A stretch of DNA of 64,000 bases from an uncultured Acidobacteriota bacterium. Its GTDB lineage: Bacteria; Acidobacteriota; Vicinamibacteria; Fen-336. The translations under genes and the position numbers were made by a program. Shown here in pieces: positions 38,018-53,155 of this stretch (position 1 is its first letter; every line of letters starts with the position of its first letter). The notes below the pieces were generated by a model, which had not been told where the DNA came from, searched no databases, and saw only the letters and a list, made by a program, of their open reading frames with translations. The stretch is taken from positions 77,704 to 141,703 of the forward strand of contig CAVSPR010000010.1 of assembly GCA_963729875.1 (NCBI GenBank). The letters run 5' to 3'.

Positions 38018-39402
38018 GCGCCCCCGATCCCCTCAAGGGCTACAAGGGCCGGGCCCGGGCGCGGCTCGAGGGCTTCGGCGTCCGGGTGTGGAGCGACGTG
38101 CGCGCCACGAACGACGCCGGCAGCGTCTTCGAGGGCGTGATCCTGCCCCGCAGCGAGACCCTCGACGACGAGCACGTCGTCATCAAGCTCAAGACCGGCT
38201 ACAACGTCGGCCTCCACGTCGACCGGGTTCGGACGATGGGCGAGGTCGGGTACAAGGAAGCCGTCTACAAGATCCCGGAGAAGGAGTTCCCCTCGCGGCC
38301 GGAGCTGCCGACGGTCACGCTCCTCGGCACCGGGGGGACGATCGCCTCGCGCCTCGACTACCGGACGGGCGCGGTGATCCCCGCCTTCACGCCCGGCGAG
38401 CTCTACGGCGCGGTGCCGGAGCTCGCCGACCTCGCGAACCTCACCACGAAGAAGCTCTTCGGCGTCTTCTCGGAGAACATGGCGAAGGAGCAGTACGTGG
38501 CCCTCGCCGAGGCCATCGGCCGCGAGATCGAGGACGGGGTGGACGGCATCGTGATCGGCCACGGCACCGACACCATGGGCCACACCGCGGCGATCCTGTC
38601 CTTCATGGTCCAGGACACCCCGGTGCCGATCGTGATGGTCGGCTCGCAGCGCTCGAGCGACCGGCCCTCGAGCGACGCCGCGCTCAACCTGATCCACGCG
38701 GTCCGGGCCGCGGGCCGGGGCGAGATCGCCGAGGTCCAGATCTGCATGTTCGGCCCGACCTCGGACCAGTACGCGCTGCTGCACCGCGGCACGCGCTGCC
38801 GCAAGATGCACAGCTCGTACCGGTCCACCTTCCGCACCATCGGCGGCATCCCTCTTGCCATGGTGGGCGACGACTTCACGTACCTCTCCGACGACTTCCG
38901 CCGCCGCGACCGCTCGGGCAAGGTGAAGGTGGACACGGCCTACGAGGACCGGACGACCATCCTCTACTACTACCCGGGGATGAAGCCGGACCTCGTGGAC
39001 GCGCTCGTCGAGAAGGGCTACCGCGGGATCGTGATCGCGGGGACGGGCCTCGGGCACGTCAACAAGCCGCTCTACCCGGCGCTCGAGCGCGCGGTGGCGG
39101 CGGGCGTCCACGTGGTGATGACCGTGCAGACGCTCTGGGGCTACGCCCAGATGTACGTCTACGACACCGGGCGCGACCTTCTCGACCTCGGCATCGTGCC
39201 CCTCGACAACATGCTGCCGGAGACGGCCCTCATGAAGCTGAGCTGGGTCCTCGGCCACACCGACGACCACGCCGAGGTGCTCCGCATGATGCGCCACCCG
39301 ATCAGCCACGAGACGACGGAGCGCGAGCCACACAACGGCTACCTCATCCTCCAGGGCGGGCTGCCGGAGACGGAGGAGTTCGTCTCCAGCCACTGGAAGT
39401 AG
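38014..39402 (+). CDS. gatD: Archaeal-type Glu-tRNA(Gln) amidotransferase subunit D (asparaginase-fold glutaminase)
   Basis: The GTG start overlaps the gatE stop (GTGA). Contains LGTGGTIASRLDYRTGAV, HGTDTMGHTAA, GSQRSSDRPSSDA and RKMHSSYRSTFR, the type I asparaginase/GatD signature blocks. Confidence 0.85.
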   Translation: MSAPDPLKGYKGRARARLEGFGVRVWSDVRATNDAGSVFEGVILPRSETLDDEHVVIKLKTGYNVGLHVDRVRTMGEVGYKEAVYKIPEKEFPSRPELPTVTLLGTGGTIASRLDYRTGAVIPAFTPGELYGAVPELADLANLTTKKLFGVFSENMAKEQYVALAEAIGREIEDGVDGIVIGHGTDTMGHTAAILSFMVQDTPVPIVMVGSQRSSDRPSSDAALNLIHAVRAAGRGEIAEVQICMFGPTSDQYALLHRGTRCRKMHSSYRSTFRTIGGIPLAMVGDDFTYLSDDFRRRDRSGKVKVDTAYEDRTTILYYYPGMKPDLVDALVEKGYRGIVIAGTGLGHVNKPLYPALERAVAAGVHVVMTVQTLWGYAQMYVYDTGRDLLDLGIVPLDNMLPETALMKLSWVLGHTDDHAEVLRMMRHPISHETTEREPHNGYLILQGGLPETEEFVSSHWK

Positions 39403-39465
39403 CGCCGGCTCTCCTGCGCGCGGTGCCTCCCCATCTCCGCCGGGGGCAATCGCGGCGGTCGATGG

Positions 39466-39471
39466 TATAGT
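39466..39471 (+). promoter_or_regulatory. Candidate -10 element (TATAGT) inside an AT-rich partial palindrome upstream of vapB
   Basis: TGGTATAGTAAGACTGGTAGGAGTATTACCATG: the TGGTA / TACCA arms flank the -10 and the AGGAG RBS. This is a plausible autoregulatory operator. Confidence 0.3.
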
Positions 39472-39492
39472 AAGACTGGTAGGAGTATTACC

Positions 39493-39717
39493 ATGCGCAT
39501 CACGTCCAAGGGGCAGGTCACGATCCCGCAGGAGATCCGGCTCCGGCTCGGGCTGCAGCCGGAGACCGAGGTCGAGTTCGATGTCGTCGGCAACGCGGTG
39601 AGGATGCGCAAGGTCGAGGGCCGCCCGGGCCGCGGCCGGGGGATCGTCGACCGCCTGCGCGGGCGCGCGACGACCCGGCTCACGACCGACCAGATCCTCG
39701 CCCTGACCCGGGGGTAG
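39493..39717 (+). CDS. vapB: AbrB/MazE/SpoVT-family antitoxin (VapB-type)
   Basis: 74 aa: MRITSKGQVTIPQEIRLRLGL, a SpoVT-AbrB looped-hinge helix motif. Confidence 0.8.
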   Translation: MRITSKGQVTIPQEIRLRLGLQPETEVEFDVVGNAVRMRKVEGRPGRGRGIVDRLRGRATTRLTTDQILALTRG

Positions 39718-39721
39718 CGGC

Positions 39722-40132
39722 ATGGCGGGGGTCCTCGTCGACAGCAACGTCCTCCTCGACGTCCTCACCGAGGACCCGGAGTGGTTCGCCTGGTCCTCGG
39801 AGGCGCTCGCGCGCTGCGCCGACGAGTCGGAGCTCGTCGTCAACCCGATCGTGTACGCGGAGGTGTCCGTCGGCTTCGGCCGGGTCGAGGACGTCGAGTC
39901 CGCCCTGCCCCCGGACGCCTTCATCCGCAGCCCGCTGCCGTGGGACGCGGCCTTCCTGGCCGGGAAGTGCTTCCAGGCCTACCGGCGTCGGGGCGGAGCG
40001 AAGCGTTCGCCGCTCCCCGACTTCTACATCGGCGCGCACGCGGCGGTGGCGGGGCTCTCGCTCCTCACCCGCGACCCCGTGCGGTACCGGACGTACTTCC
40101 CCAGGCTCCGGCTCGTCGCGCCTACTTCGTGA
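39722..40132 (+). CDS. vapC: PIN-domain ribonuclease toxin (VapC-type)
   Basis: 136 aa. VLVDSNVLLDVL (first acidic residue), ..NPIVYAEV.., DFYIGAHAAVAGLSLLTRD (conserved Asp pair context). Starts 4 nt after vapB. Confidence 0.85.
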   Translation: MAGVLVDSNVLLDVLTEDPEWFAWSSEALARCADESELVVNPIVYAEVSVGFGRVEDVESALPPDAFIRSPLPWDAAFLAGKCFQAYRRRGGAKRSPLPDFYIGAHAAVAGLSLLTRDPVRYRTYFPRLRLVAPTS

Positions 40133-40152: not shown

Positions 40153-40330
40153 TCACGCCGCCTTGTCGTTGGGGTTGCCCCACTCGAGGTGCTCGCCGAC
40201 CGTGAGCGGCAGGGTCGCGTCCATCATGGTGTTCATCACTTCCACGAAGGGCACCGTCGCGTGGACGGCCCGGAAGAGGTCGGGGCGCAAGTTGGTGACG
40301 GCGCCCATCAGGAGGCCGCTCACGGGGAAG
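40153..40330 (-). pseudogene. Remnant (about 55 codons) of an S9A prolyl-oligopeptidase/oligopeptidase-B-type serine peptidase
   Basis: The minus-strand reading GLLMGAVTNLRPDLFRAVHATVPFVEVMNTMMDATLPLTVGEHLEWGNPNDKAA* matches, from memory, the S9A block that follows the catalytic GGSAGG. The nucleophile Ser motif and the Asp/His part are absent. Confidence 0.5.
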
Positions 40331-41024
40331 CGTCGCTGTCCGCCTCGACCGCCCCGTCGCGCAGCCGGATGATGCGCGTGGCCAGCTCGACCACGCGCGC
40401 GTCGTGGGTGGCGAAGATGAAAGTGACGCTCCGCTCGCGGTTGATGTCCCGCATCAGTCGGACGATGCCGCCGCCGGTCTCGGAGTCCAGGTTCGCGGTG
40501 GGCTCGTCGGCCAGGACCAGGAGGGGGTCGGTGACCAGGGCGCGGGCGATGGCCACGCGCTGGCGCTGTCCGCCGCTGAGCTGGTCGGGCCGGTGCGCGA
40601 GGTGGCTCGCGAGCCCCACGGCCTCGACGGTCTCGCGCACCTTGCGGTCGCGGTCCTTTCGCGCCCGGCCCTTGAGGATGAGCGGGAACTCGACGTTCTC
40701 GTAGACGTCGAACACCGGCACGAGGTTGAAGCTCTGGAAGATGAAGCCGATGGCGTCACGCCGCAGCCGGGTGGCGGCGGCGTCGCTCAGGCGGCTCGTG
40801 GCCTGCCCGTGGACGTACACCTCGCCCTCGGTCGGCACGTCCAGGCAGCCGACGAGGTTGAGCAGCGTCGTCTTCCCCGAGCCGGAGGGGCCGGCCACCG
40901 CCACGAAGCCGCCGCGGGCGATCGAGAGGTCGACGCCTTTCAGGGCCCGGACCCAGGTCTCGCCCAGGCGGTAGGACTTCCGAACCCCGGCGAACCGCAC
41001 GACCGTGTCGGGATCATCGGCCAT
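40320..41024 (-). CDS. ABC transporter ATP-binding protein (MacB/LolD-type)
   Basis: 234 aa. Walker A GPSGSGKTT, Q-loop, signature LSGGQRQRVAIARA, Walker B LVLADEPT. Confidence 0.9.
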   Translation of the reverse strand: MADDPDTVVRFAGVRKSYRLGETWVRALKGVDLSIARGGFVAVAGPSGSGKTTLLNLVGCLDVPTEGEVYVHGQATSRLSDAAATRLRRDAIGFIFQSFNLVPVFDVYENVEFPLILKGRARKDRDRKVRETVEAVGLASHLAHRPDQLSGGQRQRVAIARALVTDPLLVLADEPTANLDSETGGGIVRLMRDINRERSVTFIFATHDARVVELATRIIRLRDGAVEADSDASP

Positions 41025-41032
41025 GGTCGTCC

Positions 41033-42244
41033 TCAGAGGAAGTACCGCAGGGAGAGGGCGAGGCTGCGTCGCACGGCGAGCAGGCCGAACTCGTCGGCCG
41101 CGCTCCCGTAGCGCCAGAAGCCCGTCAGGGCGACCTTGAACCGGCCCGCCGCGCTCCACTCGAGGACGGGCCTCACGTACCCGGAGCCGTCCTCCAGGCT
41201 CGTCAGGCTCACCAGGCCGAGCTTCCACCTCTTCGCGCCGGTGTGGGTGTACGACGCGTGGAGATAGGCGTGGCGCAGCTCCCCGGGCTGGCGGAGCGCC
41301 CCCGCGAGGCCCGCCGCCGGGTCCATCCCGCCCTCCGCCGGCGCGCCGAGGCCGCCGGCGAGGGCCCGGACGCGCTCGAACTCGGCGGCGGAGAGGCCGC
41401 GCGAGTCGTAGAGCACCTCCATCACGAGCAGGCCGTTCCGGAGCGCCTGCCGGTTCACCCCGAGGACCACGAGGCCCCGGACCGCGTCGCTCCGCTTCTC
41501 CACGGGGGGGGCTCCGGCGGCGACGTCCGGTGGTGGCACGGGGTAGATGCGCTGGTCGTTCCAGATGAGGCAACCCTCCGCCTGGACCGTCCACGAGCCC
41601 AGGCCGCGCCGGACCCCGGCCCCGAGCGTGCGCTCGGACTCGGTGCTGCCGAAGGCGTTGACGTAGGCCTCGGTGCCCCCGAAGTAGCCGTCGAGCTGCA
41701 CGCCCGGGAACACGCCGTCGGAGTTCCAGGCCACGACCAGCCGGGGCGTGAGACGGGCGGAGCGGCACCACACGGCGGCGGTCGAGATCCCCTCTGCCAG
41801 GTAGTCGGGCCGCGCCAGGTCGACCTTGGGCTGGGCAAGGAAGGTCGGGTTCCAGTAGTAGGAGTACTGGTCGGGGTAGCGCCGCACGCCCAGCGACGCG
41901 CCGCACTCGGCCGTCGAGAAGGCGAGGTAGGCCTCGTTCAGCTCCCCGGTCAGGCCCCCGAGCCGCGAGACGTCCTCGCCTCCCGCGATGGCGTAGCCGT
42001 CGAAGCGGGCGGTCAGCCGGCGGCTCTCGTCGCCCATCTGGAAGAGAGCCCGCAGGGACAGGGCCGTCTGCACGTCGTCCACGGCCTCGCTGCCGGGGGC
42101 GCCGGGGCTGCCGTCGTTGGCCCTCACCATCCACTCCAGGTCGCCCGACAGGCCCTGGGCGCCGACCGGGGCCGCGCCGGCGAGCGCGGCCACGAGCAGG
42201 CCGACCGCCGCGAGCGAGCGCGCCGCCCCGGGAGGGAAGCTCAC
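41033..42244 (-). CDS. Secreted hypothetical protein, probable outer-membrane beta-barrel
   Basis: The GTG start overlaps the upstream stop (GTGA). Signal peptide ..AGAAPVGAQG. Alternating-polarity strands throughout and C-terminal ..LALSLRYFL. Confidence 0.5.
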   Translation of the reverse strand: MSFPPGAARSLAAVGLLVAALAGAAPVGAQGLSGDLEWMVRANDGSPGAPGSEAVDDVQTALSLRALFQMGDESRRLTARFDGYAIAGGEDVSRLGGLTGELNEAYLAFSTAECGASLGVRRYPDQYSYYWNPTFLAQPKVDLARPDYLAEGISTAAVWCRSARLTPRLVVAWNSDGVFPGVQLDGYFGGTEAYVNAFGSTESERTLGAGVRRGLGSWTVQAEGCLIWNDQRIYPVPPPDVAAGAPPVEKRSDAVRGLVVLGVNRQALRNGLLVMEVLYDSRGLSAAEFERVRALAGGLGAPAEGGMDPAAGLAGALRQPGELRHAYLHASYTHTGAKRWKLGLVSLTSLEDGSGYVRPVLEWSAAGRFKVALTGFWRYGSAADEFGLLAVRRSLALSLRYFL

Positions 42245-43014: not shown

Positions 43015-44256
43015 GCAGCGCCTCCACGATCCTCAAGCGGCGGGCGCGGAGCGCCCCGCGCAGCCCGCCCAGCCAACCCGCCGTCACCCCGAGCACGGCA
43101 CAGCCCACGTACTCGATGGGCCGGCTGATCGGGTAGAAGCGGGGGCTGACGGGTGTCGAGGACAGCTCCCCGACGTCGGTCGGGATGCCGTGGATCCCGT
43201 AGTACCAGCAGAGGAGCGCGCCCAGCAGGCACCCGGCGAGGGCGCCGAGAGCTCCACGAGGGCCGACTCGGCCGAGACCAGGGCCAGGAGCGTGTTGCGG
43301 GACATCCCGACCGCCCGCAGCGTGCCGAGCTCGCGCGTCCTCTCGAAGACCGTCATCGACATGGAGTTGCTCATGATGAACGTCGAGACCAGGAGCAGCA
43401 CCCCGAAGAAGAGGGTGAGGAAGCGCGTGTCCACGGCGATGTCGGCCACGAGCGCGGGCTCGTAGTGACGCCAGTCGAACGCCTCGGTCGCCGCCGCGAG
43501 CTCGGGCCCGAGGAAGCCGGGGATCGCCCCGAGCACCGCCTTGGTCGCGCCCGGGTCCTCGAGCGCCACCAGCACCTCCGTGGCGCCGTCCCGCATCTCG
43601 AGCAGCTCCCGGGCGAGGGGCAGGGGGACGAAGAACGTCGCCTGGTCGACGGCGCTGAACGGGGGGCGGACGATCCCCACCACCTCGGCCTCGACGATGT
43701 TGGGGACGTCGTGGACGCTCTGGGCATTCAGCCGGACCGTCTGGCCTGGGGCGGCCTCGAGCAGGCGCGCGAGGCGCTCGGTGAGCAGCACCCCCGCGTC
43801 GGACGAGCGCAGGTAGCGCCCGGCCCGGACCCGCTCGGGAAGGAGCGAGAACGCCGCCTCGCGCTCCGGGTCGAAGGCGACACCGTGGCTGCGGAGCTGC
43901 TCCTGCCCCCGGGACAGCGACGCCGGGAAGCGGATGCGCGCGGAGACGAGCCGGACCCCGGGGCGGCCCTGCAGGGCGAGGAGGATCGGGCCGGGGTCGG
44001 CGATGGCCGGCGCGAGCGGCAGCCGTCGGGCGACGGCGTCGTAGCCGCGCGCGTGGATCTGGATGTGCCCGGTCCGGTAGCGCGTGGCCTTGGTCACCCC
44101 GTCGACGATGCGGAAGCGGTAGACGCCGACGAAGAACGCGATCATGGACAGGCAGACGACGAAGGCCGCCATGTCGAGCAGGGTGCGCCTCGGGTTCCGG
44201 CGCACGTTGCGCCCGGCGAGCCCGAGGACGAGCCGGGCGGGTCCCAGGGCTCTCAT
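43007..44256 (-). CDS. FtsX/MacB-type ABC transporter permease, with one frameshift near 43250-43262
   Basis: ORF 43084-44256 carries the N-terminal TM and the periplasmic domain. After ..GMSRNTLLALVSAESALV the frame must shift to read LGALAGCLLGALLCWYYGIHGIP...RRLRIVEALRD* (stop complementary to 43007-43009). Confidence 0.8.
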
Positions 44257-45464
44257 CGGAAGGACAGGGCCTCGATGGGCTTAATCTTCCCGGCCAGCCA
44301 GGCCGGGTAGACGCCCGCCAGGGCCGACACGCCGACCCCGATCACCAGGCAGAAGACGCCGATCTCGGCCGTGAACGCGGGGTGGATCACCCGGGCGATC
44401 CCGTCCAGCTGGGGTCCCATGTCGATGCCCCTGCGCCCCGCCAGGGCGACGACGAGCGCGCCCAGGGCCACTCCGAAGATCGAGCCGACGAGGCCCGTCA
44501 GCCCCGTCTCGGCCACGACGACGCCGGCGATCCCCCACCGCGACATGCCGATCGAGCGCATGGTCCCGAGCGTGCGGACGCGCTCGAAGACCGCGATCAG
44601 GTGCGTGTTCGCGATCCCCGAGACGACGACGCCGACAATGATCGAGAACAGCACGACGATCACGATGTTCACCCAGACGAGCCCGGCCGCGATCTCGGCG
44701 TAGACGTCGCGCCAGGAGTGCACGGCGAGATGCCGCTTCGCCAGCGGCCCCGCGAGCTCGGCCACCACCCGCGCCGTGTCGTCGGCGTCGCGTAGCCGCA
44801 CCAGCACCGCGGTCACGCTCGACCGCACCTGCAGGAGGCGGCGCACGGTGTCGATGGAGGCCAGCGCGAGGTCCTCGTTCTCCTCGGTCTTGTCGGTCCG
44901 GTAGATCCCGGCCACGACCACGCTCACGGCGTTGAGGCCCCCGTTGGGGTTGTAGGCCAGGAGGGTCAGCCGGTCGCCCACCTTCAGTCCCAGGTAGCGC
45001 GCGAGCCCCCAGCCGAGGACGACGCTTCCGTCGGAGGCCGGGAAGGCGCCGTCCACGATCGCCTGGCGATAGCGTCGGTTCCACGCCGCATCGCCGACGT
45101 CGATGCCACGGAGCATCACCTCCGCGGAGCGCTCGCCGCTCAGCAGCCGGGCCCCGCACGCCAGCTCGACGGTCGCGCCCGACACGTCGGGGCGCCCGCG
45201 CAGCGCTTCGAGGAGGGGCGCGGGGTCGTCGATGGCCAGGTGAACGGGCAGCATCGCGGCCCTCTCGCGGTAGCCCTCCCGCTCCACCGTGACGTGGCCG
45301 ACCGTGTCGAAGGCCAGCTCCATGAACATGCGCCTCATGCCGATGAGGAGCGCGAGCGCAGAGGTGAGCGCGGCGATGCTCAGGGCCATGGCCACGACCA
45401 CGCCCATCGACCTCCGCCGGTCCCGCAGGGCGTGGCGCCAGGCGACCTTCAGAACCATGGCCAT
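44253..45464 (-). CDS. FtsX/MacB-type ABC transporter permease
   Basis: Intact 403 aa with the same architecture. The C-terminal FtsX block is RVRTLGTMRSIGMSRWGIAGVVVAETGLTGLVG. Its stop overlaps the downstream start (ATGA). Confidence 0.85.
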   Translation of the reverse strand: MAMVLKVAWRHALRDRRRSMGVVVAMALSIAALTSALALLIGMRRMFMELAFDTVGHVTVEREGYRERAAMLPVHLAIDDPAPLLEALRGRPDVSGATVELACGARLLSGERSAEVMLRGIDVGDAAWNRRYRQAIVDGAFPASDGSVVLGWGLARYLGLKVGDRLTLLAYNPNGGLNAVSVVVAGIYRTDKTEENEDLALASIDTVRRLLQVRSSVTAVLVRLRDADDTARVVAELAGPLAKRHLAVHSWRDVYAEIAAGLVWVNIVIVVLFSIIVGVVVSGIANTHLIAVFERVRTLGTMRSIGMSRWGIAGVVVAETGLTGLVGSIFGVALGALVVALAGRRGIDMGPQLDGIARVIHPAFTAEIGVFCLVIGVGVSALAGVYPAWLAGKIKPIEALSFR

Positions 45465-45474
45465 CGCGCTCTCT

Positions 45475-46664
45475 CTAGGCCACCGGCGCCGCCGGCGCCG
45501 GGCGCGCCGTCGAGAGGGGGCGCCAGTCGCACGCCAGCGCGAAGTCGATGCAGCGCCTGAACAGCTCGTAGTCGAAGGGCGGACAGCGCACGCCGGCCGC
45601 CTCGAGGACCCGGTCGGCGCGCGTGGTGTCGAAGAGGCGCGTGTCCTTCAGGTAGGGCCGGTAGACGTCGATGTCCTTCTCGAACCGCTCCTCGAGAGCG
45701 GTCTTGGGCGCCGCGAGGAACGTCTCCGACGGGCAGGCCGCGGGACCCGTCAAGCGGAAGTAGCGCGACGTGTAGGCGACGAGGTCGGCCACCGAGGAAG
45801 GCCGCTTGTTGACGAGGTGGTAGATGCCGGGCTCGGCGTCCGAGGCGATCACGGCGAGCACGGCGTCGACGACGAAGTCGATGGGCACGAGGTTCAGGAC
45901 CCCTCCCCCGGGGGGCCCGTGTCCAGCCGCACCGGCACGTCGAGCGTGCCGTCCTCGCGCAGGTGGACCCCCATCTCGGCGGCGAGCCGCCCCTCGTTCT
46001 GGTCGATGTCCATTCTCAGGAGGTCGAGGATGTATCGCGAGAACCGGACGGGGTAGTACATGGCGTTGAAGAGCAGGGTCCGCCCGTCCGCGGAATCGCC
46101 CACGATGATCGAGGGCCGATGGACGTACACCGGGACGTGGCGGCGCCGGCCGAAGTCCAGGACCATCTTCTCGGCCTCGAGCTTCGATTCCTCGTAGGAG
46201 TTGTGGAAGCCCGGCGGGTCCTCGATCGCCTCGGCGCAGAGCCCGTCCCGACGGCCGGACACGAAGGCCGTGCTCATGTGGTGGAGGGAGCGGAGGGGCG
46301 CGGCCTCCGCCAGCTCGAGCAGGTGGGCCGTGCCCTCGACGTTCGAGGCGTAGATCTGCGCCCGCTTCGTCTCCTCGAAGGTGGTCGCCGCCGCGCAGTT
46401 CACGATCCCGTCCAGGCGGCGGGCGAGACGCGTGAAGGCGGCCGGGCTCAGGCCGAGCCCGGGCCGGGCGAGGTCGGCCTGCACCAGCTGGACGCGGGAG
46501 GCCTCGCTCGCCCCGTGCCAGCGCAGGACGCGCTCCAGCCGCTTCCGCGCCGGGTGGTTCTCGCGGGAGCGGACGAGCGCCGCCACGCGATGGCCCGCCC
46601 GGAGGAGAGCCACGGTGAGGTAGGAGCCCACGAACCCGGCGGCGCCCGTGACCAGAAACCTCAT
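45475..46664 (-). CDS. Thioester-reductase / fatty-acyl-CoA-reductase-type extended SDR (NAD_binding_4-like), with one frameshift near 45890-45900
   Basis: MRFLVTGAAGFVGSYL (Rossmann), ..HHMSTAFVSG.., NSYEESKLEAE (YxxxK). The C-terminal part (PIDFVVDAVLAVI..) lies in ORF 45475-45888. The frame break falls in the run CCCCTCCCCCGGGGGGCCC. Confidence 0.75.
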
Positions 46665-48532
46665 CTTCGGCCCCCGAAGAGATAGGTCGCGGGGCGGCTC
46701 AGCCCGTGCAGCCGGACGGACTCGCCCGAGCAGACGAAATCGGGGCCCGCGCACAGCTCGCGCTCGGTCTCCGCCGCCTCCTTCATGGCCGCGCGGACCT
46801 CCCGGACCTGGCGCGGGTCGGTGGCGTCGAAGTACAGGTCGTACTCCATCACCGCCCGCGTGCCGTCCGCCAGCGGGACGAGGTAGCCGAACGCGTGGGG
46901 GAGGCCGTGACGCTCGCCGATCTCCCCCAGGCGCTCGCAGGCCCGGGGCACGGCCCCCGGCTCGTCCAGCGAGCAGTAGAGGACGCGCGACACGAACTGG
47001 TGCCCGCGCCCCATCCGCGCGGGGAGGATGCGGAAGAGGTTGAGCCAGACGGAGTCGGCCGTCTCCGGCCGCCGGAGGAAGGCCTCGAAGAAGCCCCGCA
47101 GGTCCGCGTCGACACCGTCGTCGGGCACGCAGGCCCGCGCCCGCAGCGCCATCTCGACGAGCGGGCGCAGGCCGGGGGCGAAGAGCTCCTTGTAGCGCGC
47201 CTCCCCGCCGCCCTGCTCCATCATCCACTGGAGCTCGGGGTCGCGATCGAGGCTCGGGAGGGCTCGCAGCAGCAGGCCGCCCAGGGCGCGGCTCAGCACC
47301 GGCCCGGCGAACGACGGGATGGCGGCGAGGACGCTGCGGTCGCCGATGCACACGACGAAGGCCCGCACGCCGAGGCCGTCCTCGAGCGCCCTGCGGATCC
47401 GCGGGACGGCCGCCGGGCTGGGGGCGGCGAACATCGACACGTACGCCGTGCCCATCACCCCCAGGCCGGTCCCGATCCGGCGCCGGGCGATGTCCCTCGC
47501 GACCGCTACCGCCTCCTCTAGGCTGCCGCAGGGGACGAAGACGCAGTCCTCGTCGGGAGGGGCGGGGTGGAGCCGGATCTCCATCTCCGTGCAGATCCCG
47601 GCCTCGGCCGCGGACCGCGCGCCGGGAAGGGAGACCAGGTTGGGCGCGTCGGGGTCGCTCAGCCGGTACACGCGGCCGGTCGGGTCGACGAGCTCCGCGT
47701 CCACCACGTGGTCGATGCCCACGCCCCAGGCGTAGGACAGGAAGGAGTGCATGTTGGTGCACAGGACGTTGGCGCAGACGCAGGCTGCGGGCTCGGCCAC
47801 GCTGGCCCACATGCCGACCTTCACCGCTGCCGCCTGCAGGTCGAAGGCGAGGACCCCGGGTCCGACCGTGGCGGTCCAGCGGGGGCGGTCGATGCTCAGG
47901 CCGTTCATTCGCGCGAGGTCGATCACCAGGCCGTCGCTCAGCGCGCCCGCGAGGCTCGTCCCCGCGCCCCGGGCCGCGAAGGGGATCTCCCGGTGCCGGC
48001 AGGTCCGGACCAGGGAGGCGACCTCGGCGGTGGATCCGGGCAGGGCCACGTAGCGCGGCGGCGTCTCCTCGGCGAGGGGCGAGCGGGCCCAGCCGTAGCT
48101 CGCGAGGATCGCCGGGTCGGCGCTCACCCAGCCCCGCCCCACGCAAGCGACGAGCTCCGCGAGCACGGGATCCGCGCCCTGGCCGGCGGCGGGAGCGGCA
48201 AGCGTCGCCACCTCCTCCTTGAAGGCCTGGAACAGGCGCAGCGAGCGGATGCCGGCGGTGAAGTAGCACTGCTTGTCGCAGACCCCGCACTCCGTGCAGG
48301 AGCGGGCCACCTCCAGGAGGCCGTCCGTGACCGGCAGGGCGCCCCGGCGGAACGCGCCGATCACCCGCATCCGGCCCTGGGGATAGAAGGCGGCGAAATG
48401 CCGCTCCCGGCCCACGGGGCAGACGCCGATCCCCAGGAAGTCGATGCGGCACATCCCATAGCCGGGACAGCGGTCGGCGGCCTCCGCCTGCCGGGCGAAG
48501 CCGCTCGTCGGTCGCACGGCGACGGAGCTCAC
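46661..48532 (-). CDS. FAD-linked oxidase (FAD_binding_4/PCMH-type) with an N-terminal Cys-rich, Fe-S-like segment
   Basis: The probable GTG start at 48532 overlaps the SCP2 stop (GTGA); an alternative ATG is at 48454. Cys cluster CPGYGMCRIDFLGIGVCPVG...CTECGVCDKQCYF. FAD-binding block PRYVALPGSTAEVASLVRTCRHREIPFAARGAGTSLAG. The stop overlaps the reductase start (ATGA). Confidence 0.65.
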   Translation of the reverse strand: MSSVAVRPTSGFARQAEAADRCPGYGMCRIDFLGIGVCPVGRERHFAAFYPQGRMRVIGAFRRGALPVTDGLLEVARSCTECGVCDKQCYFTAGIRSLRLFQAFKEEVATLAAPAAGQGADPVLAELVACVGRGWVSADPAILASYGWARSPLAEETPPRYVALPGSTAEVASLVRTCRHREIPFAARGAGTSLAGALSDGLVIDLARMNGLSIDRPRWTATVGPGVLAFDLQAAAVKVGMWASVAEPAACVCANVLCTNMHSFLSYAWGVGIDHVVDAELVDPTGRVYRLSDPDAPNLVSLPGARSAAEAGICTEMEIRLHPAPPDEDCVFVPCGSLEEAVAVARDIARRRIGTGLGVMGTAYVSMFAAPSPAAVPRIRRALEDGLGVRAFVVCIGDRSVLAAIPSFAGPVLSRALGGLLLRALPSLDRDPELQWMMEQGGGEARYKELFAPGLRPLVEMALRARACVPDDGVDADLRGFFEAFLRRPETADSVWLNLFRILPARMGRGHQFVSRVLYCSLDEPGAVPRACERLGEIGERHGLPHAFGYLVPLADGTRAVMEYDLYFDATDPRQVREVRAAMKEAAETERELCAGPDFVCSGESVRLHGLSRPATYLFGGRR

Positions 48533-48897
48533 GGGAGCCCCCCCCCGGCGCCGCCGGCCCGCGCCGCCTCCTTCGCCGAAGCGGAGAGGATGGCGGCGAA
48601 CCGCAGGACGTCGAACAGGCTGCCCGAGGTGCGGATGAGCCCCTGCATCTTCGCCTCCAGCGGGTTCAGGGTCCCCGCCATCAATCGGTCCAGCGTGCCT
48701 TCGTCGAGCTCGAAGAAGGGTGAGGCGTCGTCGGCCGCCGGACCGAGCGAGGCCCGGCCCCCGTCGATCAGAAGGTGGATGCGTTCGGCCCCGATCGCGA
48801 GGCCGACGCACCTGTCCCAGCCCCGCAGCATGCGTCCCACGGAATCGCTCCGGTTGGCGGCCTCGACCAGCAGCCCGACCTTGCCCGCGGCGTCCAC
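48529..48897 (-). CDS. SCP2 (sterol-carrier-protein-2) domain lipid-binding protein
   Basis: 122 aa. ..FELDEGTLDRLMAGTLNPLEAKMQGLIRTSGSLFDVLRF is the canonical SCP2 C-terminal helix pattern. Confidence 0.7.
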   Translation of the reverse strand: MDAAGKVGLLVEAANRSDSVGRMLRGWDRCVGLAIGAERIHLLIDGGRASLGPAADDASPFFELDEGTLDRLMAGTLNPLEAKMQGLIRTSGSLFDVLRFAAILSASAKEAARAGGAGGGLP

Positions 48898-48916
48898 GAT
48901 CGATGCCTCCCCGCCC

Positions 48917-50371
48917 TCACGCCGTGACCGGGGCTTCGAGGTAGGCGTTCACGTCGACCTCCTCCATCCAGCGGGTGTCGGACCGCGTCAGGCGATGGCC
49001 GTGGCCCTTCTTGCGGGTGGCGTCGATGCCCGTCTTCACGGAGAAGTCCCCCACCCGGGCGGCGTCGGTCAGCTCGCCGGTCGCTTCCAGCACCACGACG
49101 TCGCGGGTGGCGACCACCCGCGTGTCCACCGCCCACTGCACGTCCTGCGGGTCGTAGATGTCCACGTCGGTGTCGACCACCACGATCCGCTTGAGCCGCG
49201 CGGAGAAGGCGAACAGCCCGCGGATGAGATCGAGGGGCTCGCTCTCGCTCCGCTTGTCGACCGCCACCACGAGCCCGGTGCCGGGCACGCCGGGCAGCAC
49301 GAAGAGGTCCTTCACGTTGGGGGAGATCAGGGAGACGAACCGCCGGGTCTTCGCGAGTTCGGTCATGTTCAGGGGGAGGATGAGCGACACCATCTCGAGC
49401 GACGTGCAGACCAGGCTGTGGAAGACGGGGGCCTCCCGCCGGCGCACGGCCGTGACGTTCACGCAGAACCCCTCGGTGGCCTGGCTGGCGATGAGGTCGT
49501 ACTCGGTGAACGGCCCCTCGCGGACCCGCTCGTCCGGGTCGATCGTTCCCTCGATCAGGAACTCGGCGTCGGCCGGCACGGGCAGGTCGACGGTGAGCCC
49601 CCGCGCCACCTCGTAGGGAGCGCCCTGGAGCGCACCGGCCACCGCGAGCTCGCTCTGGCCGAAAGGCACGCTCATGGTGGCCGCGACGAGCAGGGAGGGC
49701 GCGACGCCGACCGCGATCGCGACCTCCAGCCGCTTCCCCTGCCGCGACGCGCCGTAGAGGATCGACAGGAGGTCCCGCCTGGCGTTGACCATGATGGCCA
49801 GCCGCCGCTCGTCGAGCAGCTGGATGCGGTAGATGCCGGCGTTCAGATGGCCGGTGGCGTCGTCCCGGGCGATGGTGACGGCCGTGGTGAGGTAGGGACC
49901 GGCGTCCTCGCGGAAGTACCAGGAGGCAGGGACGAGCCGCGGGACGTCCACCTCCCGGTCCACGACGGTGTGCTCCCATTGGCCGCCGGCGGCCACGGGC
50001 TCGATCGGATGCGCCAGCGCCCCCATGACCGCGGCCTCCAGCTCCCGGTAGAGGCCCAGGAACATCGGGTTGGTCGCCCAGACGGGGTAGACGATGCCGG
50101 GCTTGCGAAGCCCCGCGTAGAGGCCGGCCAGCTCCGGCTGCATCGGGATGGTGGGGAGGACGCCCGTTCGCAGCGGCATGAGGAACAGGTTGCCGGCGGC
50201 CGTCACGCCCGGGTGGCCCACGATCTGCTCGAAGAGAACGGCCTTGCGGAGCGTCCTCTCCACCTGCCACTGGACCGCCGCCATCTCGTGCCGGGTCTCG
50301 ACCGGCCGCCGGACGCGGACCAGGTGCCCCAGGTCCTCGAGCTCCTCGATGTACTCTCGCAGGCCATTCAT
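48917..50371 (-). CDS. UbiD-family (prFMN-dependent) decarboxylase
   Basis: Intact 484 aa. Contains LFEQIVGHPG, NAGIYRIQLLDERRLAIM, GQSELAVAGALQGAPYEV, AEFLIEGTIDPDERVREGPFTEY and the C-terminal UbiD fold. Confidence 0.85.
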   Translation of the reverse strand: MNGLREYIEELEDLGHLVRVRRPVETRHEMAAVQWQVERTLRKAVLFEQIVGHPGVTAAGNLFLMPLRTGVLPTIPMQPELAGLYAGLRKPGIVYPVWATNPMFLGLYRELEAAVMGALAHPIEPVAAGGQWEHTVVDREVDVPRLVPASWYFREDAGPYLTTAVTIARDDATGHLNAGIYRIQLLDERRLAIMVNARRDLLSILYGASRQGKRLEVAIAVGVAPSLLVAATMSVPFGQSELAVAGALQGAPYEVARGLTVDLPVPADAEFLIEGTIDPDERVREGPFTEYDLIASQATEGFCVNVTAVRRREAPVFHSLVCTSLEMVSLILPLNMTELAKTRRFVSLISPNVKDLFVLPGVPGTGLVVAVDKRSESEPLDLIRGLFAFSARLKRIVVVDTDVDIYDPQDVQWAVDTRVVATRDVVVLEATGELTDAARVGDFSVKTGIDATRKKGHGHRLTRSDTRWMEEVDVNAYLEAPVTA

Positions 50372-50390
50372 GGCCGAGGCTCCCCGGGGG

Positions 50391-51209
50391 TCAGATCAGT
50401 CTGCCGAGCTCGGACCCCCGTCTCTCGTTGCGATACTCGGACAGCATCTCCGTCGAGATCTCCACCTTGTCCCGGAGCCACGCGAGCGCCTTGCGGTTGA
50501 ACTCCAGGTACGGCTCGAAGGGAAGGCGGTACCCCAGGGAGTGGATGAGCGACATCACGACGCCCAGGCACACCGGCTGCGCGCGGTAGCTCGTGGCGTA
50601 GTCGGACTTGTGTCCTCCGTCGCCGAGCACGTTCATCTCGTGGAGCTCCTGCGACGTGCTCTTGTGGACGGCGCCCTCGAGCTCCTCCGGGGAGAGGTAC
50701 TTGACGAGATCGAAGAGGTCGTCGCCGACGTAGTCGACCACCGGGTGCTCGAGGGTGATGCCGAACGCGCGATACAGCTGGTCGATCATCTCCAGCCCCT
50801 TGCGCGTCTGGTCGACCCACAGGGCCATGGTGATGTTCGCGCCGTCGAGCACGTGGGCGACGTCGTTGTCGAGGCAGTACATGATCGTCCGCACGTGCAT
50901 CCCCATCCGGCAGTGCAGGCAGAGGGAGGCCTCCATGAGCCCGTGCCGGAGCACGGAGCGGAGCTGCTTCTTCGTCAGGATCTTCTCGATCACCGCCCCG
51001 GCCGGCATCATCACGTGCGTGAAGCGCACGCCCGGGAACGCCTCCCGCAGGCGGGGCACGTTCCGCCCGGCGAACTCGTCCAGGCACGAGACGGGGACCT
51101 CGTAGGTGAGGAGGACGATCTCCTCGAACCGGCCCGACCGGGCGGCCTTGGCGGCGGCGAGCGTGCAGTCGGAGCCGCCGGAGAAGAGCACGACCGCCCT
51201 CGCGCTCAC
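50391..51209 (-). CDS. PP-loop (adenine nucleotide alpha-hydrolase superfamily) ATPase-like protein, function unknown
   Basis: The N-terminal VVLFSGGSDCT resembles the SGGxDS PP-loop. An internal CLHC motif is present. The GTG start overlaps the upstream stop (GTGA). Confidence 0.55.
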   Translation of the reverse strand: MSARAVVLFSGGSDCTLAAAKAARSGRFEEIVLLTYEVPVSCLDEFAGRNVPRLREAFPGVRFTHVMMPAGAVIEKILTKKQLRSVLRHGLMEASLCLHCRMGMHVRTIMYCLDNDVAHVLDGANITMALWVDQTRKGLEMIDQLYRAFGITLEHPVVDYVGDDLFDLVKYLSPEELEGAVHKSTSQELHEMNVLGDGGHKSDYATSYRAQPVCLGVVMSLIHSLGYRLPFEPYLEFNRKALAWLRDKVEISTEMLSEYRNERRGSELGRLI

Positions 51210-51421
51210 GCCGCCCCCCTTCCCGGTTTCGCCTGCTCGATGATGTCGAACATCACGCGAAAGAACTCGTACCGCCTCCAGACCGGCAGCCGGGCGAGGG
51301 CGAGCGCGAACCGGCTCTTCAGCCGGATCGTCGGGATCAGCACGAAGGTCGAGAGGACGAGGAAGCTGAGCGCGGCTCTCCCCACCCTGACCGTCCTGTG
51401 GGGAGAGATCATCTCTTCCAT
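51206..51421 (-). CDS. Small single-TM protein, first gene of the 11-gene operon (hypothetical)
   Basis: 71 aa from the ATG complementary to 51419-51421: MEEMISPHRTVRVGRAALSFLVLSTFVLIPTI... The stop is coupled to the next gene. No recognisable family. Confidence 0.35.
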   Translation of the reverse strand: MEEMISPHRTVRVGRAALSFLVLSTFVLIPTIRLKSRFALALARLPVWRRYEFFRVMFDIIEQAKPGRGAA

Positions 51422-51589
51422 GCTGTGAGCCCCCGCCGGAGGGTTCTCGTGTGCCTCACTGAACGCCCAAGGCGCCGGCAACCTCAATAGTGCAAGTGGA
51501 CTACGCACCGCCGGGGACGGCACGACTCACTGCTATTCTTGGTCCGCCTCGAGTCGCCGTCGGGTGCGCGTGGACGAAGGAGGGCCAGT

Positions 51590-53155
51590 GTGGGCAAGAA
51601 GATGAAGAGCGCGGGACCGCCGCCGGCCCCGCCCGGCACGCCGGTCCCGGCGGCGGGCGCTGCGTCGCGGGCCCTCCTGCTCCTCGCCCCGCTCCTCTCC
51701 GGCGCGGCCATCATGGGGCTCGAGCTCGTCGGCCTCCGGCTCCTCGCCCCGCGCTTCGGCGCCTCGACGTACGTGTGGGGAGGGCTCCTCGGGACGATCA
51801 TGGCGGCGCTCGCCGTCGGCTACCTGCTCGGCGGGGCGCTGGCCGACCGGCGCCCGCGCCCCGCGTGGGTCTTCGGGCTCCTCGTCGCGGGCGGGGCCTG
51901 GGTGGCGGGGAGCCTCCTGGTCACGGAGGCGGTCCTCGACGCGGCCGAGCGGCTCGGCGCCACCCTGGGCCCCCTCCTCGCGACCGGCGTTCTCCTCGGG
52001 CCCCCCATGCTCCTGCTCGGCTCGGTGTCCCCCTTCGTCATCCGGCTCGAGGCCCAGCTCTCCTCCCTCGGGGTCACCGCCGGGCGCGTCTTCGCCCTGT
52101 CGACCGCGGGCAGCCTCGCCGGCACGTTCGTCGCGGCCTTCTGGTGGATCCCGGATTACGGGTGCCGTCACACGCTCCGGATCCTGGTCGCCGCGCTGGT
52201 GGTGCCGGGGATGCTGGGGCTCGCCTGGCCGCGCTCCCGCGCCGCGAGGGCGGCGGCGGCCCTCGTTCTCGCCGCCCTCCCCCTCCTGGCGCCGGACGCG
52301 CCGCTCCCGCCGGGCATCGTCTTCGCCGAGGAGTCCCCCTACAACACCGTCTTCGTCGAGAAGCAGGGAGAGAACACGCTGCTGCGACTCAACGACCCCA
52401 GGCGCGGCTTCCACTCGGTGCAGCTGGGGCGGGGAATGCTCACCGGGGCCTACTACGACGTCCTCTACCTCGGCCCGCTCCTCGCGCAGGGAAGGGACGT
52501 GCTGGTCCTGGGGATGGGCGGAGGGACGACGGTGCGCGCCTACCGCCGCTTCTACCCCGGCGCCCGCGTGAGCGCGGTCGAGATCGACCCCGTGATCGTC
52601 CGGGTCGCGCACGAGTTCATGGGCGTCGCGCGCGGCCCCGACCTCGACGTGCACGTCGAGGATGCCCGGCCGTTCCTGAAGCGGGGGAAGAGCGCCTTCG
52701 ACGTGATCGAGGTCGACCTCTTCGCGGGCGGCCCGTACGCGCCCTTCTACTGCCTGACCCGGGAGTTCTTCGAGGCGGTGCGGGCGCGGCTCGAGCCCTC
52801 CGGCCTCGTCTCGATGAACGTCTACGCGCCCGGCGGCGACCGCACGCTCGCCGAGGCCGTCGTGGCTACCCTGGCCGCGGTGTTTCCCACCGTCCTGGAG
52901 TTCCCGCTCGCCGAGGAGCGGGTGCTGATCGCGTTCAGGGAAGAGACCTCTCTGGATCGGGTCCGCGCGCTTCTCTCCGACCCCGCCCTGCCCGAGGAGC
53001 TCGGAGCCGTCGCGCGTGAAGCGACGGTCGCGCTGCGACCGGCGACGCCCGGCCGCGGGGCCGTTCTGACCGACGACCGCGCCCCCGTCGAGCCGCTGAC
53101 GCACGCGATGATCGTCCGCCGGGACCTCCTTCGCGAAGGGAGCCGTCGGCACTGA
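51590..53155 (+). CDS. Fused membrane domain / spermidine-synthase-like protein (second paralogue in the window)
   Basis: Start is GTG 51590 or ATG 51602. N-terminal TM helices (LLSGAAIMGLELVGLRLLAPRFG). C-terminal domain DVLVLGMGGGTTVRA..VSAVEIDPVIV..FDVIEVDLF..PFYCLTREFFEAVRARLEPSGLV. Confidence 0.8.
   Translation: MGKKMKSAGPPPAPPGTPVPAAGAASRALLLLAPLLSGAAIMGLELVGLRLLAPRFGASTYVWGGLLGTIMAALAVGYLLGGALADRRPRPAWVFGLLVAGGAWVAGSLLVTEAVLDAAERLGATLGPLLATGVLLGPPMLLLGSVSPFVIRLEAQLSSLGVTAGRVFALSTAGSLAGTFVAAFWWIPDYGCRHTLRILVAALVVPGMLGLAWPRSRAARAAAALVLAALPLLAPDAPLPPGIVFAEESPYNTVFVEKQGENTLLRLNDPRRGFHSVQLGRGMLTGAYYDVLYLGPLLAQGRDVLVLGMGGGTTVRAYRRFYPGARVSAVEIDPVIVRVAHEFMGVARGPDLDVHVEDARPFLKRGKSAFDVIEVDLFAGGPYAPFYCLTREFFEAVRARLEPSGLVSMNVYAPGGDRTLAEAVVATLAAVFPTVLEFPLAEERVLIAFREETSLDRVRALLSDPALPEELGAVAREATVALRPATPGRGAVLTDDRAPVEPLTHAMIVRRDLLREGSRRH

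Follow-up and report, generated by a model that had tools for sequence, protein, structure and literature searches.

We describe a ten-gene operon on the minus strand of a 64,000-nucleotide stretch of DNA (hereafter the window) from an uncultured Acidobacteriota bacterium (contig CAVSPR010000010.1, positions 77,704 to 141,703). The operon encodes a decarboxylase of the UbiD family, a stand-alone SCP2 lipid-binding protein, an iron-sulfur (Fe-S) flavoprotein, a reductase and a set of export proteins resembling the Lol machinery. Complex modelling and natural gene fusions support the conclusion that the UbiD and SCP2 proteins work together on a hydrophobic substrate. As a tentative best explanation, we propose that the operon modifies a hydrophobic carboxylic acid with an aromatic ring and hands the product on to a Lol-like export route of its own. 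This acid would most likely be a phenolic or naphthoic (quinone-type) lipid bearing an alkyl or polyprenyl substituent.

UbiD and SCP2 are predicted to form a dedicated pair

The single SCP2 sequence falls just under the gathering score of the corresponding Pfam family (PF02036; E=0.0012, 19.6 bits against 21.3). A profile built by exhaustive search from 33 relatives matches solved SCP2 proteins at E values of 1e-15 to 1e-17, and PF02036 is matched by 31 of the 33 profile members. Joint action of UbiD and SCP2 had been suggested in a first-pass annotation of the window, and two members of the UbiD clade support the suggestion, since P0003 (607 aa) and P0004 (620 aa) are fusions in which UbiD continues C-terminally into an SCP2 domain. 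When longer proteins bearing the operon SCP2 were sought, none was found, a weak negative in that the known fusions P0003 and P0004 were also not recovered.

Modelling of the complex points the same way. The UbiD–SCP2 model has a median ipSAE of 0.67 (three runs, 0.61–0.72), whereas the best of three controls reached 0.00. In a benchmark, 58 of 80 solved complexes and 2 of 110 mismatched pairs attained that mark, counts that are only rough here because our own alignments were used. At least 90% of contacts agree between runs, and the partners have pLDDT values of at least 84. On the UbiD side, the modelled interface comprises residues 13–14 and 66–110. The latter segment hardly varies within the clade and exceeds by about 30 residues its counterpart in HmfF, a furandicarboxylate decarboxylase of the same family. 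On the SCP2 side it comprises the invariant residues R22, M23, R25 and W27 together with the C-terminal helix. Judging from these models, UbiD proteins of this clade seem to have acquired a docking surface of their own for SCP2, the two partners being fused in some lineages. A literature search found no paper that joins UbiD with SCP2 outside the Ubi pathway.

The operon UbiD belongs to a small, distinct clade

All three UbiD-family Pfam models (PF20695, PF01977 and PF20696) match the operon UbiD above cut-off, and TIGR00148 does so at 247.5 bits against a cut-off of 244.85. Narrower models are not reached. The protein scores 139.9 bits against a cut-off of 788 for the UbiD sensu stricto equivalog (NF008175), 165.5 bits against 495.9 for the MqnL/SCO4490 model (TIGR03701), and 212 bits against 650 for the VdcC model. 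Another UbiD is encoded in the organism's own genome (C7:454443; genome G000). That protein is of the menaquinone SCO4490/MqnL type (451.9 bits), and MqnL acts on prenylated naphthoate. Although the two paralogues belong to one superfamily, they are only about 25% identical. The genome also carries MqnA/D, so the organism is taken to use the futalosine route. UbiX, whose presence elsewhere in the genome had been left to check, is encoded at C4:287484 and is identified as a prenylated flavin mononucleotide (prFMN) synthase by its score of 251 bits with model NF004685, whose cut-off is 188.

The closest solved relative of the operon UbiD is HmfF, the 2,5-furandicarboxylate decarboxylase (PDB 6h6v/6h6x; 206 bits to 6h6v over residues 106–479). 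The two proteins have in common the UbiD fold, a prFMN-type active site and two catalytic strings, N-x4-R and E-G-P-F-x-E-Y. Unlike HmfF, the operon enzyme carries the N-terminal extension on which SCP2 is predicted to dock, is accompanied by a lipid-binding protein of its own and is encoded in an operon of biosynthesis- and export-like content. Further solved relatives follow in the order E. coli UbiD (133 bits), InD (122), the phenolic acid decarboxylase 7ae4 (101), AroY (93), Fdc1 (77) and the UbiD-like decarboxylase 6da6 (70), which is a ranking by similarity and not a tree. The operon UbiD resembles (hetero)aromatic-acid decarboxylases more than it resembles Fdc1 and TtnD. UbiD-family enzymes share a conserved ionic network described by the motif RXnEX4(E/D) (PMC5818171). 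Residues R182, E285 and E290 fit this motif and are invariant across 19 clade members, and they align with HmfF.

Judged by sequence, then, the protein is a second UbiD paralogue of its genome and a member of a small, distinct clade whose closest kin is HmfF, not UbiD sensu stricto. A search of 5.8 billion proteins found about 24 clusters belonging to the clade, at 48–94% identity, after which identity falls to 36%. No clade member was found among 400 sampled genomes of the phylum, including those of the same genus and family.

The E. coli system of UbiD with UbiJ/UbiT offers a parallel, as it combines a prFMN decarboxylase whose substrate is an aromatic acid anchored to a lipid, a helper protein of SCP2 fold that keeps hold of hydrophobic intermediates, and a UbiX supplied from elsewhere in the genome. 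However, the operon lacks UbiA, UbiG, UbiH and UbiE, and its host has genes of the futalosine pathway. The first-pass annotation had drawn on ubiquinone biosynthesis as its analogy, but a place for the operon in that pathway is not supported, as the scores lie far under the UbiD sensu stricto and MqnL cut-offs and the operon has neither a prenyltransferase gene nor a ring-forming one. The operon belongs neither to ubiquinone biosynthesis nor to the housekeeping decarboxylation step of menaquinone synthesis.

A rare, translationally coupled operon

Third-codon-position GC content (GC3) and family searches define ten genes running on the minus strand from 51209 down to 40320. The window has a G+C content of about 72%, which crowds the lists of open reading frames (ORFs), and a single coding-strand GC3 signal spans the whole interval. 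In order of transcription, the genes are as follows.

50391–51209, minus strand: PP-loop ATP pyrophosphatase-like protein of QueC/ThiI/DUF7411 type, 272 aa, with SGGSDC and CxxC motifs
48917–50371, minus strand: UbiD-family prFMN (de)carboxylase, 484 aa, with Pfam matches to UbiD_N, UbiD and UbiD_C
48529–48897, minus strand: stand-alone SCP2 lipid-binding protein, 122 aa, matching by SCP2 profile; predicted docking partner of UbiD
46661–48532, minus strand: Fe-S and FAD flavoprotein, 623 aa, with an N-terminal ferredoxin-like, cysteine-rich domain and a VAO/PCMH fold at about residues 117–623
45475–46664, minus strand: NAD(P)-dependent extended short-chain dehydrogenase/reductase (SDR) of thioester-reductase/fatty-acyl-reductase type (NAD_binding_4); one gene
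44253–45464, minus strand: LolC/E-like FtsX permease 1, with MacB_PCD and FtsX domains; 55% identical to its counterpart in the related locus L006 (see below)
43084–44256, minus strand: LolC/E-like FtsX permease 2, with FtsX/MacB_PCD family matches; counterpart in L006
42241–43014, minus strand: periplasmic LolA_like protein (PF17131, 103.5 bits); 49% identical to its L006 counterpart
41033–42244, minus strand: 403-aa protein without a family match, with a signal-peptide-like N-terminus and a coding GC3 signal; 39% identical to its L006 counterpart
40320–41036, minus strand: ATP-binding cassette (ABC) ATPase of LolD/MacB type (LolD, 224 bits); 65% identical to its L006 counterpart

Genes are joined by 4-nucleotide overlaps (GTGA or ATGA) or by 10–20 nucleotides, except for about 70 nucleotides before the LolA-like gene. 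Scans for promoters and terminators gave nothing useful within the operon.

The operon is accessory and rare. When a collection of genome contigs with one genome per species was scanned, the only other member of the UbiD clade found was at L006, a contig of a metagenome-assembled genome (MAG) of Acidobacteriota (G401, 6.7 Mb). There the UbiD, SCP2, flavoprotein and reductase genes, both permease genes, the LolA-like gene, a gene of the 403-aa type and the ATPase gene are collinear with those of the window at 39–65% protein identity. The L006 operon lacks the PP-loop gene, and a gene related to TudS lies between the reductase gene and the first permease gene. G401 also holds one further UbiD and one UbiX. 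A metagenome scan added only two close relatives, L010 and L013, which are about 90% identical to the window and have the same local gene order; it also returned L011 and L012, copies of one unrelated UbiD (45%) that lacks the operon. Five more UbiD orthologues pair with the closest flavoprotein homologues in that both come from the same source and from contigs of exactly equal size (P0003/P0122, P0005/P0126, P0019/P0140, P0022/P0134 and P0291/P0128), and in these five cases the two genes are probably co-located. The UbiD gene of L006 (10001–11423) is split over two frames near 11040–11068, probably by a sequencing error in the MAG assembly.

In the lineage of the window, the operon opens with the PP-loop gene, which is accessory. 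This gene is present in L010, the 94%-identical relative, and in L006 its place upstream of UbiD is taken by a FabF gene. The PP-loop protein has no Pfam match; it matches the QueC model and the asparagine-synthetase-domain protein 9kq6 weakly, and its neighbours in the Atlas are QueC/ThiI/DUF7411 clusters (score 0.97). A 105-aa ORF (51206–51523, minus strand) that overlaps the start of the PP-loop gene by GTGA has one hydrophobic segment and no family match; the DNA there is poorer in GC, and the ORF is a possible but uncertain first gene.

Other genes surround the operon. A plus-strand gene at 51539–53155 encodes a 538-aa membrane protein with a spermidine-synthase-like domain and has a weak paralogue elsewhere on the same contig. 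It separates the operon from a locus encoding a multihaem OmcS-like cytochrome. Directly before the 3′ end of the operon lie genes for a MazE-type antitoxin and a PIN-domain toxin (39403–40132, plus strand). These are preceded by a GatE-like gene (GatB_N with a large insertion) and then a GatD-like gene (GatD_N and asparaginase domains) at 36047–39402 on the plus strand, a pair of amidotransferase genes of archaeal type, here in the genome of a bacterium.

An Fe-S flavoprotein and its partner reductase

The flavoprotein gene was listed as an ORF of 716 aa, which is too long. The true start lies in a GTGA overlap with the SCP2 stop codon and yields a protein of 623 aa. This protein matches FAD_binding_4 (PF01565) at 97 bits and has the FAD-binding and cap domains of the VAO/PCMH superfamily; its AF2 model (pLDDT 87) adopts the VAO/PCMH fold from residue 117 onward. 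Its N-terminus holds a Fer4_8 domain with seven conserved cysteines, so the protein is more likely a dehydrogenase than an oxidase. The first-pass annotation had placed a UbiD homologue, an SCP2 protein and a PCMH-type FAD oxidase at 46661–51209. All three are indeed encoded there on the minus strand, but the Fe-S domain makes the term oxidase less apt.

In structure comparisons (Foldseek, VIA-align), the model matches 4-alkylphenol oxidases, eugenol oxidase, 4-ethylphenol oxidase and PCMH with Z scores of 19–20 over about 405 residues. Systems built on PCMH or 4-ethylphenol methylenehydroxylase resemble the operon in this fold and in the placement of the flavoprotein gene beside an SDR gene. 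In those systems the flavoprotein passes electrons to a bound redox module and not to O2, and by analogy we propose the same for the operon flavoprotein. The module would differ, being an N-terminal Fe-S domain and not a cytochrome c subunit, and sequence identity is only 16–17%. By fold, the operon flavoprotein is a candidate for the 4-alkylphenol-oxidizing VAO/PCMH subgroup, which is marked by Tyr/Tyr/Arg residues that bind the phenolate and by para-alkylphenol chemistry.

The flavoprotein family comprises more than 100 clusters of 600–640 aa at 35–59% identity, all of them unnamed or named "FAD-binding oxidoreductase". Its Atlas clusters come from Thermodesulfobacteriota, Bacteroidota and Chloroflexota, genome searches add Acidobacteriota, and one cluster has a cultured source, Desulfovermiculus halophilus. 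Our literature search found nothing on this family, on chlorobiumquinone genes or on MenG-linked FAD enzymes. Two other roles were considered and set aside. The flavoprotein is unlikely to be an anaerobic maturase of prFMN, given that most family members reside in genomes without any UbiD. A part in ether-lipid synthesis (AGPS with FAR) was dropped, as the presence of an Fe-S domain indicates redox chemistry and the listed fold matches do not include AGPS.

The reductase matches PF07993 (NAD_binding_4; E=2e-44) and carries the YxxxK motif as YEESK, as is characteristic of thioester and fatty-acyl reductases, and it scores 133 bits against TIGR01746, under the cut-off of 213. In the window the gene is split over two frames at a C/G homopolymer stretch (45896–45915), where the assembly is one base short near 45904. 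Two short metagenome contigs that are otherwise identical to the window have one more C after position 45904, which brings both parts of the gene into one frame. The split is therefore an error of the assembly, and the repaired frame can be aligned gap-free to the single-ORF homologue in L006. Other frames of the window assembly may carry similar errors.

The flavoprotein–reductase pair occurs beyond the UbiD operon

The flavoprotein and reductase genes travel together widely in the phylum. At ten loci from other classes, the reductase gene lies directly downstream of the flavoprotein gene in eight. One Acidobacteriota class has the flavoprotein in 68 of 301 sampled genomes, and among the best 30 loci of that class the same arrangement is seen in 28. 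At 16 of these 30 best loci, representing three families and at least seven genera, a gene for a methyltransferase of the UbiE/MenG family lies directly upstream on the same strand. The resulting three-gene operon of methyltransferase, flavoprotein and reductase is conserved in L059–L086 (for example, L059:287-4109 and L067:735-4542).

In all five genomes checked, this methyltransferase is the sole match above the TIGR01934 cut-off, and by that sequence measure it is of quinone type. UbiA-family prenyltransferases are also present in the same five genomes. The three-gene operon may belong to an unknown quinone-like pathway or serve precursor salvage.

Elsewhere the neighbours of the pair vary. 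A UbiG-type O-methyltransferase gene (TIGR01983, 139 bits against a cut-off of 103) adjoins it in L029, L031 and L033, and FtsX/ABC exporter genes precede it in L027 and L028. A reductive-dehalogenase-like gene lies directly upstream in L035, L074 and L078. At L035 (635-5482), in a genome of 38% GC, the product of this gene has a twin-arginine translocation (TAT) signal and scores 187 bits against TIGR02486, and a 95-aa gene also lies upstream of the pair.

Each of the two operon-bearing genomes encodes one type III polyketide synthase (PKS), in G401 at L053:3527-7612 and in the window's own genome on C4 (L052:6727-8322). In G401 the PKS gene is followed by genes for a methyltransferase, an acyl carrier protein (ACP) and a ketosynthase, forming an alkylresorcinol-type cluster, and the UbiG-type O-methyltransferase is 34% identical to the methyltransferase beside this PKS. 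These PKS loci are a possible, unproven source of a phenolic-lipid acid.

Lol-like genes suggest an export route toward the outer membrane

The last five genes of the operon recall the LolCDE–LolA and MacB exporters in that they encode a pair of FtsX/MacB_PCD permeases together with a single ABC ATPase and a periplasmic protein resembling LolA. They fall under all Lol equivalog cut-offs, with lolCE scores of 101 and 47 bits for the two permeases (cut-off 362) and a LolD cut-off of 308 for the ATPase; only the general LolA_like model PF17131 is satisfied. Unlike LolCDE–LolA, the set is embedded in an operon of enzymes and has no membrane-fusion protein, and a protein without known family, of 403 aa, stands where LolB or another outer-membrane partner would be expected. 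This putative envelope protein may be the outer-membrane component.

A model for the operon and its alternatives

The operon resembles the lipid-handling section of quinone biosynthesis, where a UbiD-type decarboxylase likewise occurs with an SCP2 helper. We tentatively favour the following route. According to the complex model, the N-terminal lobe of the UbiD peculiar to this clade would be the docking site of the dedicated SCP2, which would present the lipid. Using prFMN made by the UbiX encoded elsewhere, UbiD would then remove, or reversibly add, a carboxyl group, as the intact catalytic motif suggests. Anaerobic alkylphenol oxidation pairs a PCMH-type hydroxylase with an SDR. By analogy, the Fe-S/VAO-type flavoprotein could dehydrogenate or hydroxylate the lipid without O2, with electrons leaving via its own Fe-S domain, and the adjacent SDR could reduce or oxidize the resulting carbonyl or alcohol. 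Finally, family resemblance suggests that the two FtsX permeases, the ABC ATPase, the LolA-like carrier and the 403-aa protein would move the product toward the outer membrane. More doubtful is the wider proposal that this is O2-independent decarboxylation and side-chain oxidation of a prenyl- or alkyl-aromatic (quinone-like) lipid, followed by delivery to the outer membrane by the Lol-like proteins, in which the flavoproteins of about 620 aa and their reductases would represent a new family for anaerobic tailoring of quinones or phenolic lipids.

A phenolic or quinone-type substrate, as first proposed from the gene content, gains indirect support through the similarity of UbiD to aromatic-acid decarboxylases and through the UbiE/MenG and UbiG neighbourhoods of the flavoprotein family. 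Several observations weigh against an aromatic lipid. Genes that would build a ring or chain, such as those for a prenyltransferase or a type III PKS, are absent from the operon, and its gene content therefore does not define a substrate. The SCP2 profile matches UbiJ (6h6n) only marginally (E=0.071) and generic SCP2 proteins far more strongly. The reductase best fits models of acyl-thioester and fatty-acyl reductases. The five genomes with the methyltransferase operon showed no UbiD, no MqnA/D and no MenB above cut-off, which leaves menaquinone production by these organisms conjectural. The flavoprotein fold matches D-lactate dehydrogenase equally well (Z 20.4 over 375 residues), and the fold searches cannot separate kinship of this kind from kinship to the alkylphenol oxidases. 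Dehydrogenases of D-2-hydroxyacids (D-LDH/GlcD type) have a conserved His/His/Glu metal site in the cap domain. An alignment of 36 sequences of the flavoprotein family retains the seven N-terminal cysteines and several arginines and has no invariant or near-invariant histidine, and the flavoprotein scores 48–50 bits against GlcD models whose cut-offs are 568–897; by these measures it does not belong to that group.

Some of these points fit an envelope lipid made from fatty acyl chains, a serious rival that we nevertheless regard as unlikely. UbiD would then form a terminal alkene from an alpha,beta-unsaturated long-chain acid, the reductase would produce an aldehyde or alcohol for export, and the flavoprotein would act on the chain as a flavin reductase or a dehydrogenase, much as a methylene fatty acid is acted on by BfaA. 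Such a pathway would accommodate the reductase, with its matches to NAD_binding_4, thioester-reductase and PRK07201-type models, and SCP2 proteins generally bind fatty acyl chains. It would also account for the FabF equivalog directly upstream of UbiD in L006, where the gene abuts the operon, for a FabK/NMO-like gene abutting the upstream side of the flavoprotein–reductase pair in L034, and for phospholipase genes nearby in L029 and L033. A precedent is the two-gene operon of BfaA and BfaB, in which a methyltransferase and an FAD-binding oxidoreductase act on a lipid to make 10-methyl stearate (PMC5660069). BfaA is a protein of about 52 kDa for which the text read mentions no Fe-S domain, and the methyltransferases that accompany the operon's flavoprotein family are of UbiE/MenG and UbiG type, not of CMAS or BfaB type. 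Moreover, UbiD is less like the enoic-acid decarboxylases (Fdc1 and 6da6) than like enzymes of aromatic acids, and genes for an ACP, a CoA ligase or a desaturase are absent from the operon.

Catabolism or detoxification of alkylphenols and aromatic acids derived from plants or lignin in wetland soil seems rather unlikely. In this case a PCMH-like dehydrogenase and the SDR would oxidize side chains, UbiD would decarboxylate the acid, and the product or toxicant would be pumped out. The closest solved relatives of UbiD, such as HmfF and phenolic acid decarboxylases, are indeed catabolic, the flavoprotein has PCMH, eugenol oxidase and 4-ethylphenol oxidase among its fold matches, reductive-dehalogenase-like genes adjoin the pair at the three loci named above, and the sequencing runs that contain the sequence come from wetland and soil metagenomes, with no RNA run among those listed. 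However, a dedicated SCP2, fused to UbiD in some lineages, and a LolA-like carrier with LolCDE-like extractors suggest a lipidic cargo and not small soluble aromatics. The operon also lacks CoA ligase, ring-reduction and ring-cleavage genes, and its gene order is constant across 39–65% protein identity, as in a biosynthetic cassette.

We consider it very unlikely that the product is a redox-active lipid of the outer membrane working together with the OmcS-type nanowire system, whose genes lie 2 kb away. The first-pass annotation had rightly noted that the operon lies close to an omcS-like gene, which lies about 2.2 kb away (53409), with the membrane protein gene in between. This closeness, the apparently envelope-directed export and the quinone-type associations of the flavoprotein family would suit the idea. 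Yet the operon and the omcS locus point away from each other, and another gene lies between them. In G401, the only other operon-bearing genome found, the OmcS query has no match at E<=1e-5, whereas it finds two copies in the window's own genome, and the flanks of the L006 operon are unrelated, with genes for KdpD, GH109 and FabF. The suggested link to extracellular electron transfer thus rests on proximity in one genome and is unsupported.

Implications

To our knowledge, UbiD enzymes that act on lipids are known only from quinone biosynthesis, where the SCP2 helper (UbiJ/UbiT) serves later steps. The UbiD–SCP2 pair offers a testable model of how a soluble prFMN decarboxylase reaches a membrane lipid. 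The Fe-S/VAO flavoprotein family is uncharacterized and common in anaerobes, and it may point to unknown anaerobic chemistry of quinones or phenolic lipids. In one Acidobacteriota class, the flavoprotein shares its operon with a UbiE/MenG-type methyltransferase that is the sole one found in each of the five genomes checked, and hallmark genes of both known pathways to the menaquinone head group were not found there. Lipids of Acidobacteriota serve as environmental proxies, and a new envelope lipid from wetland members of the phylum would therefore be of interest to geochemists.

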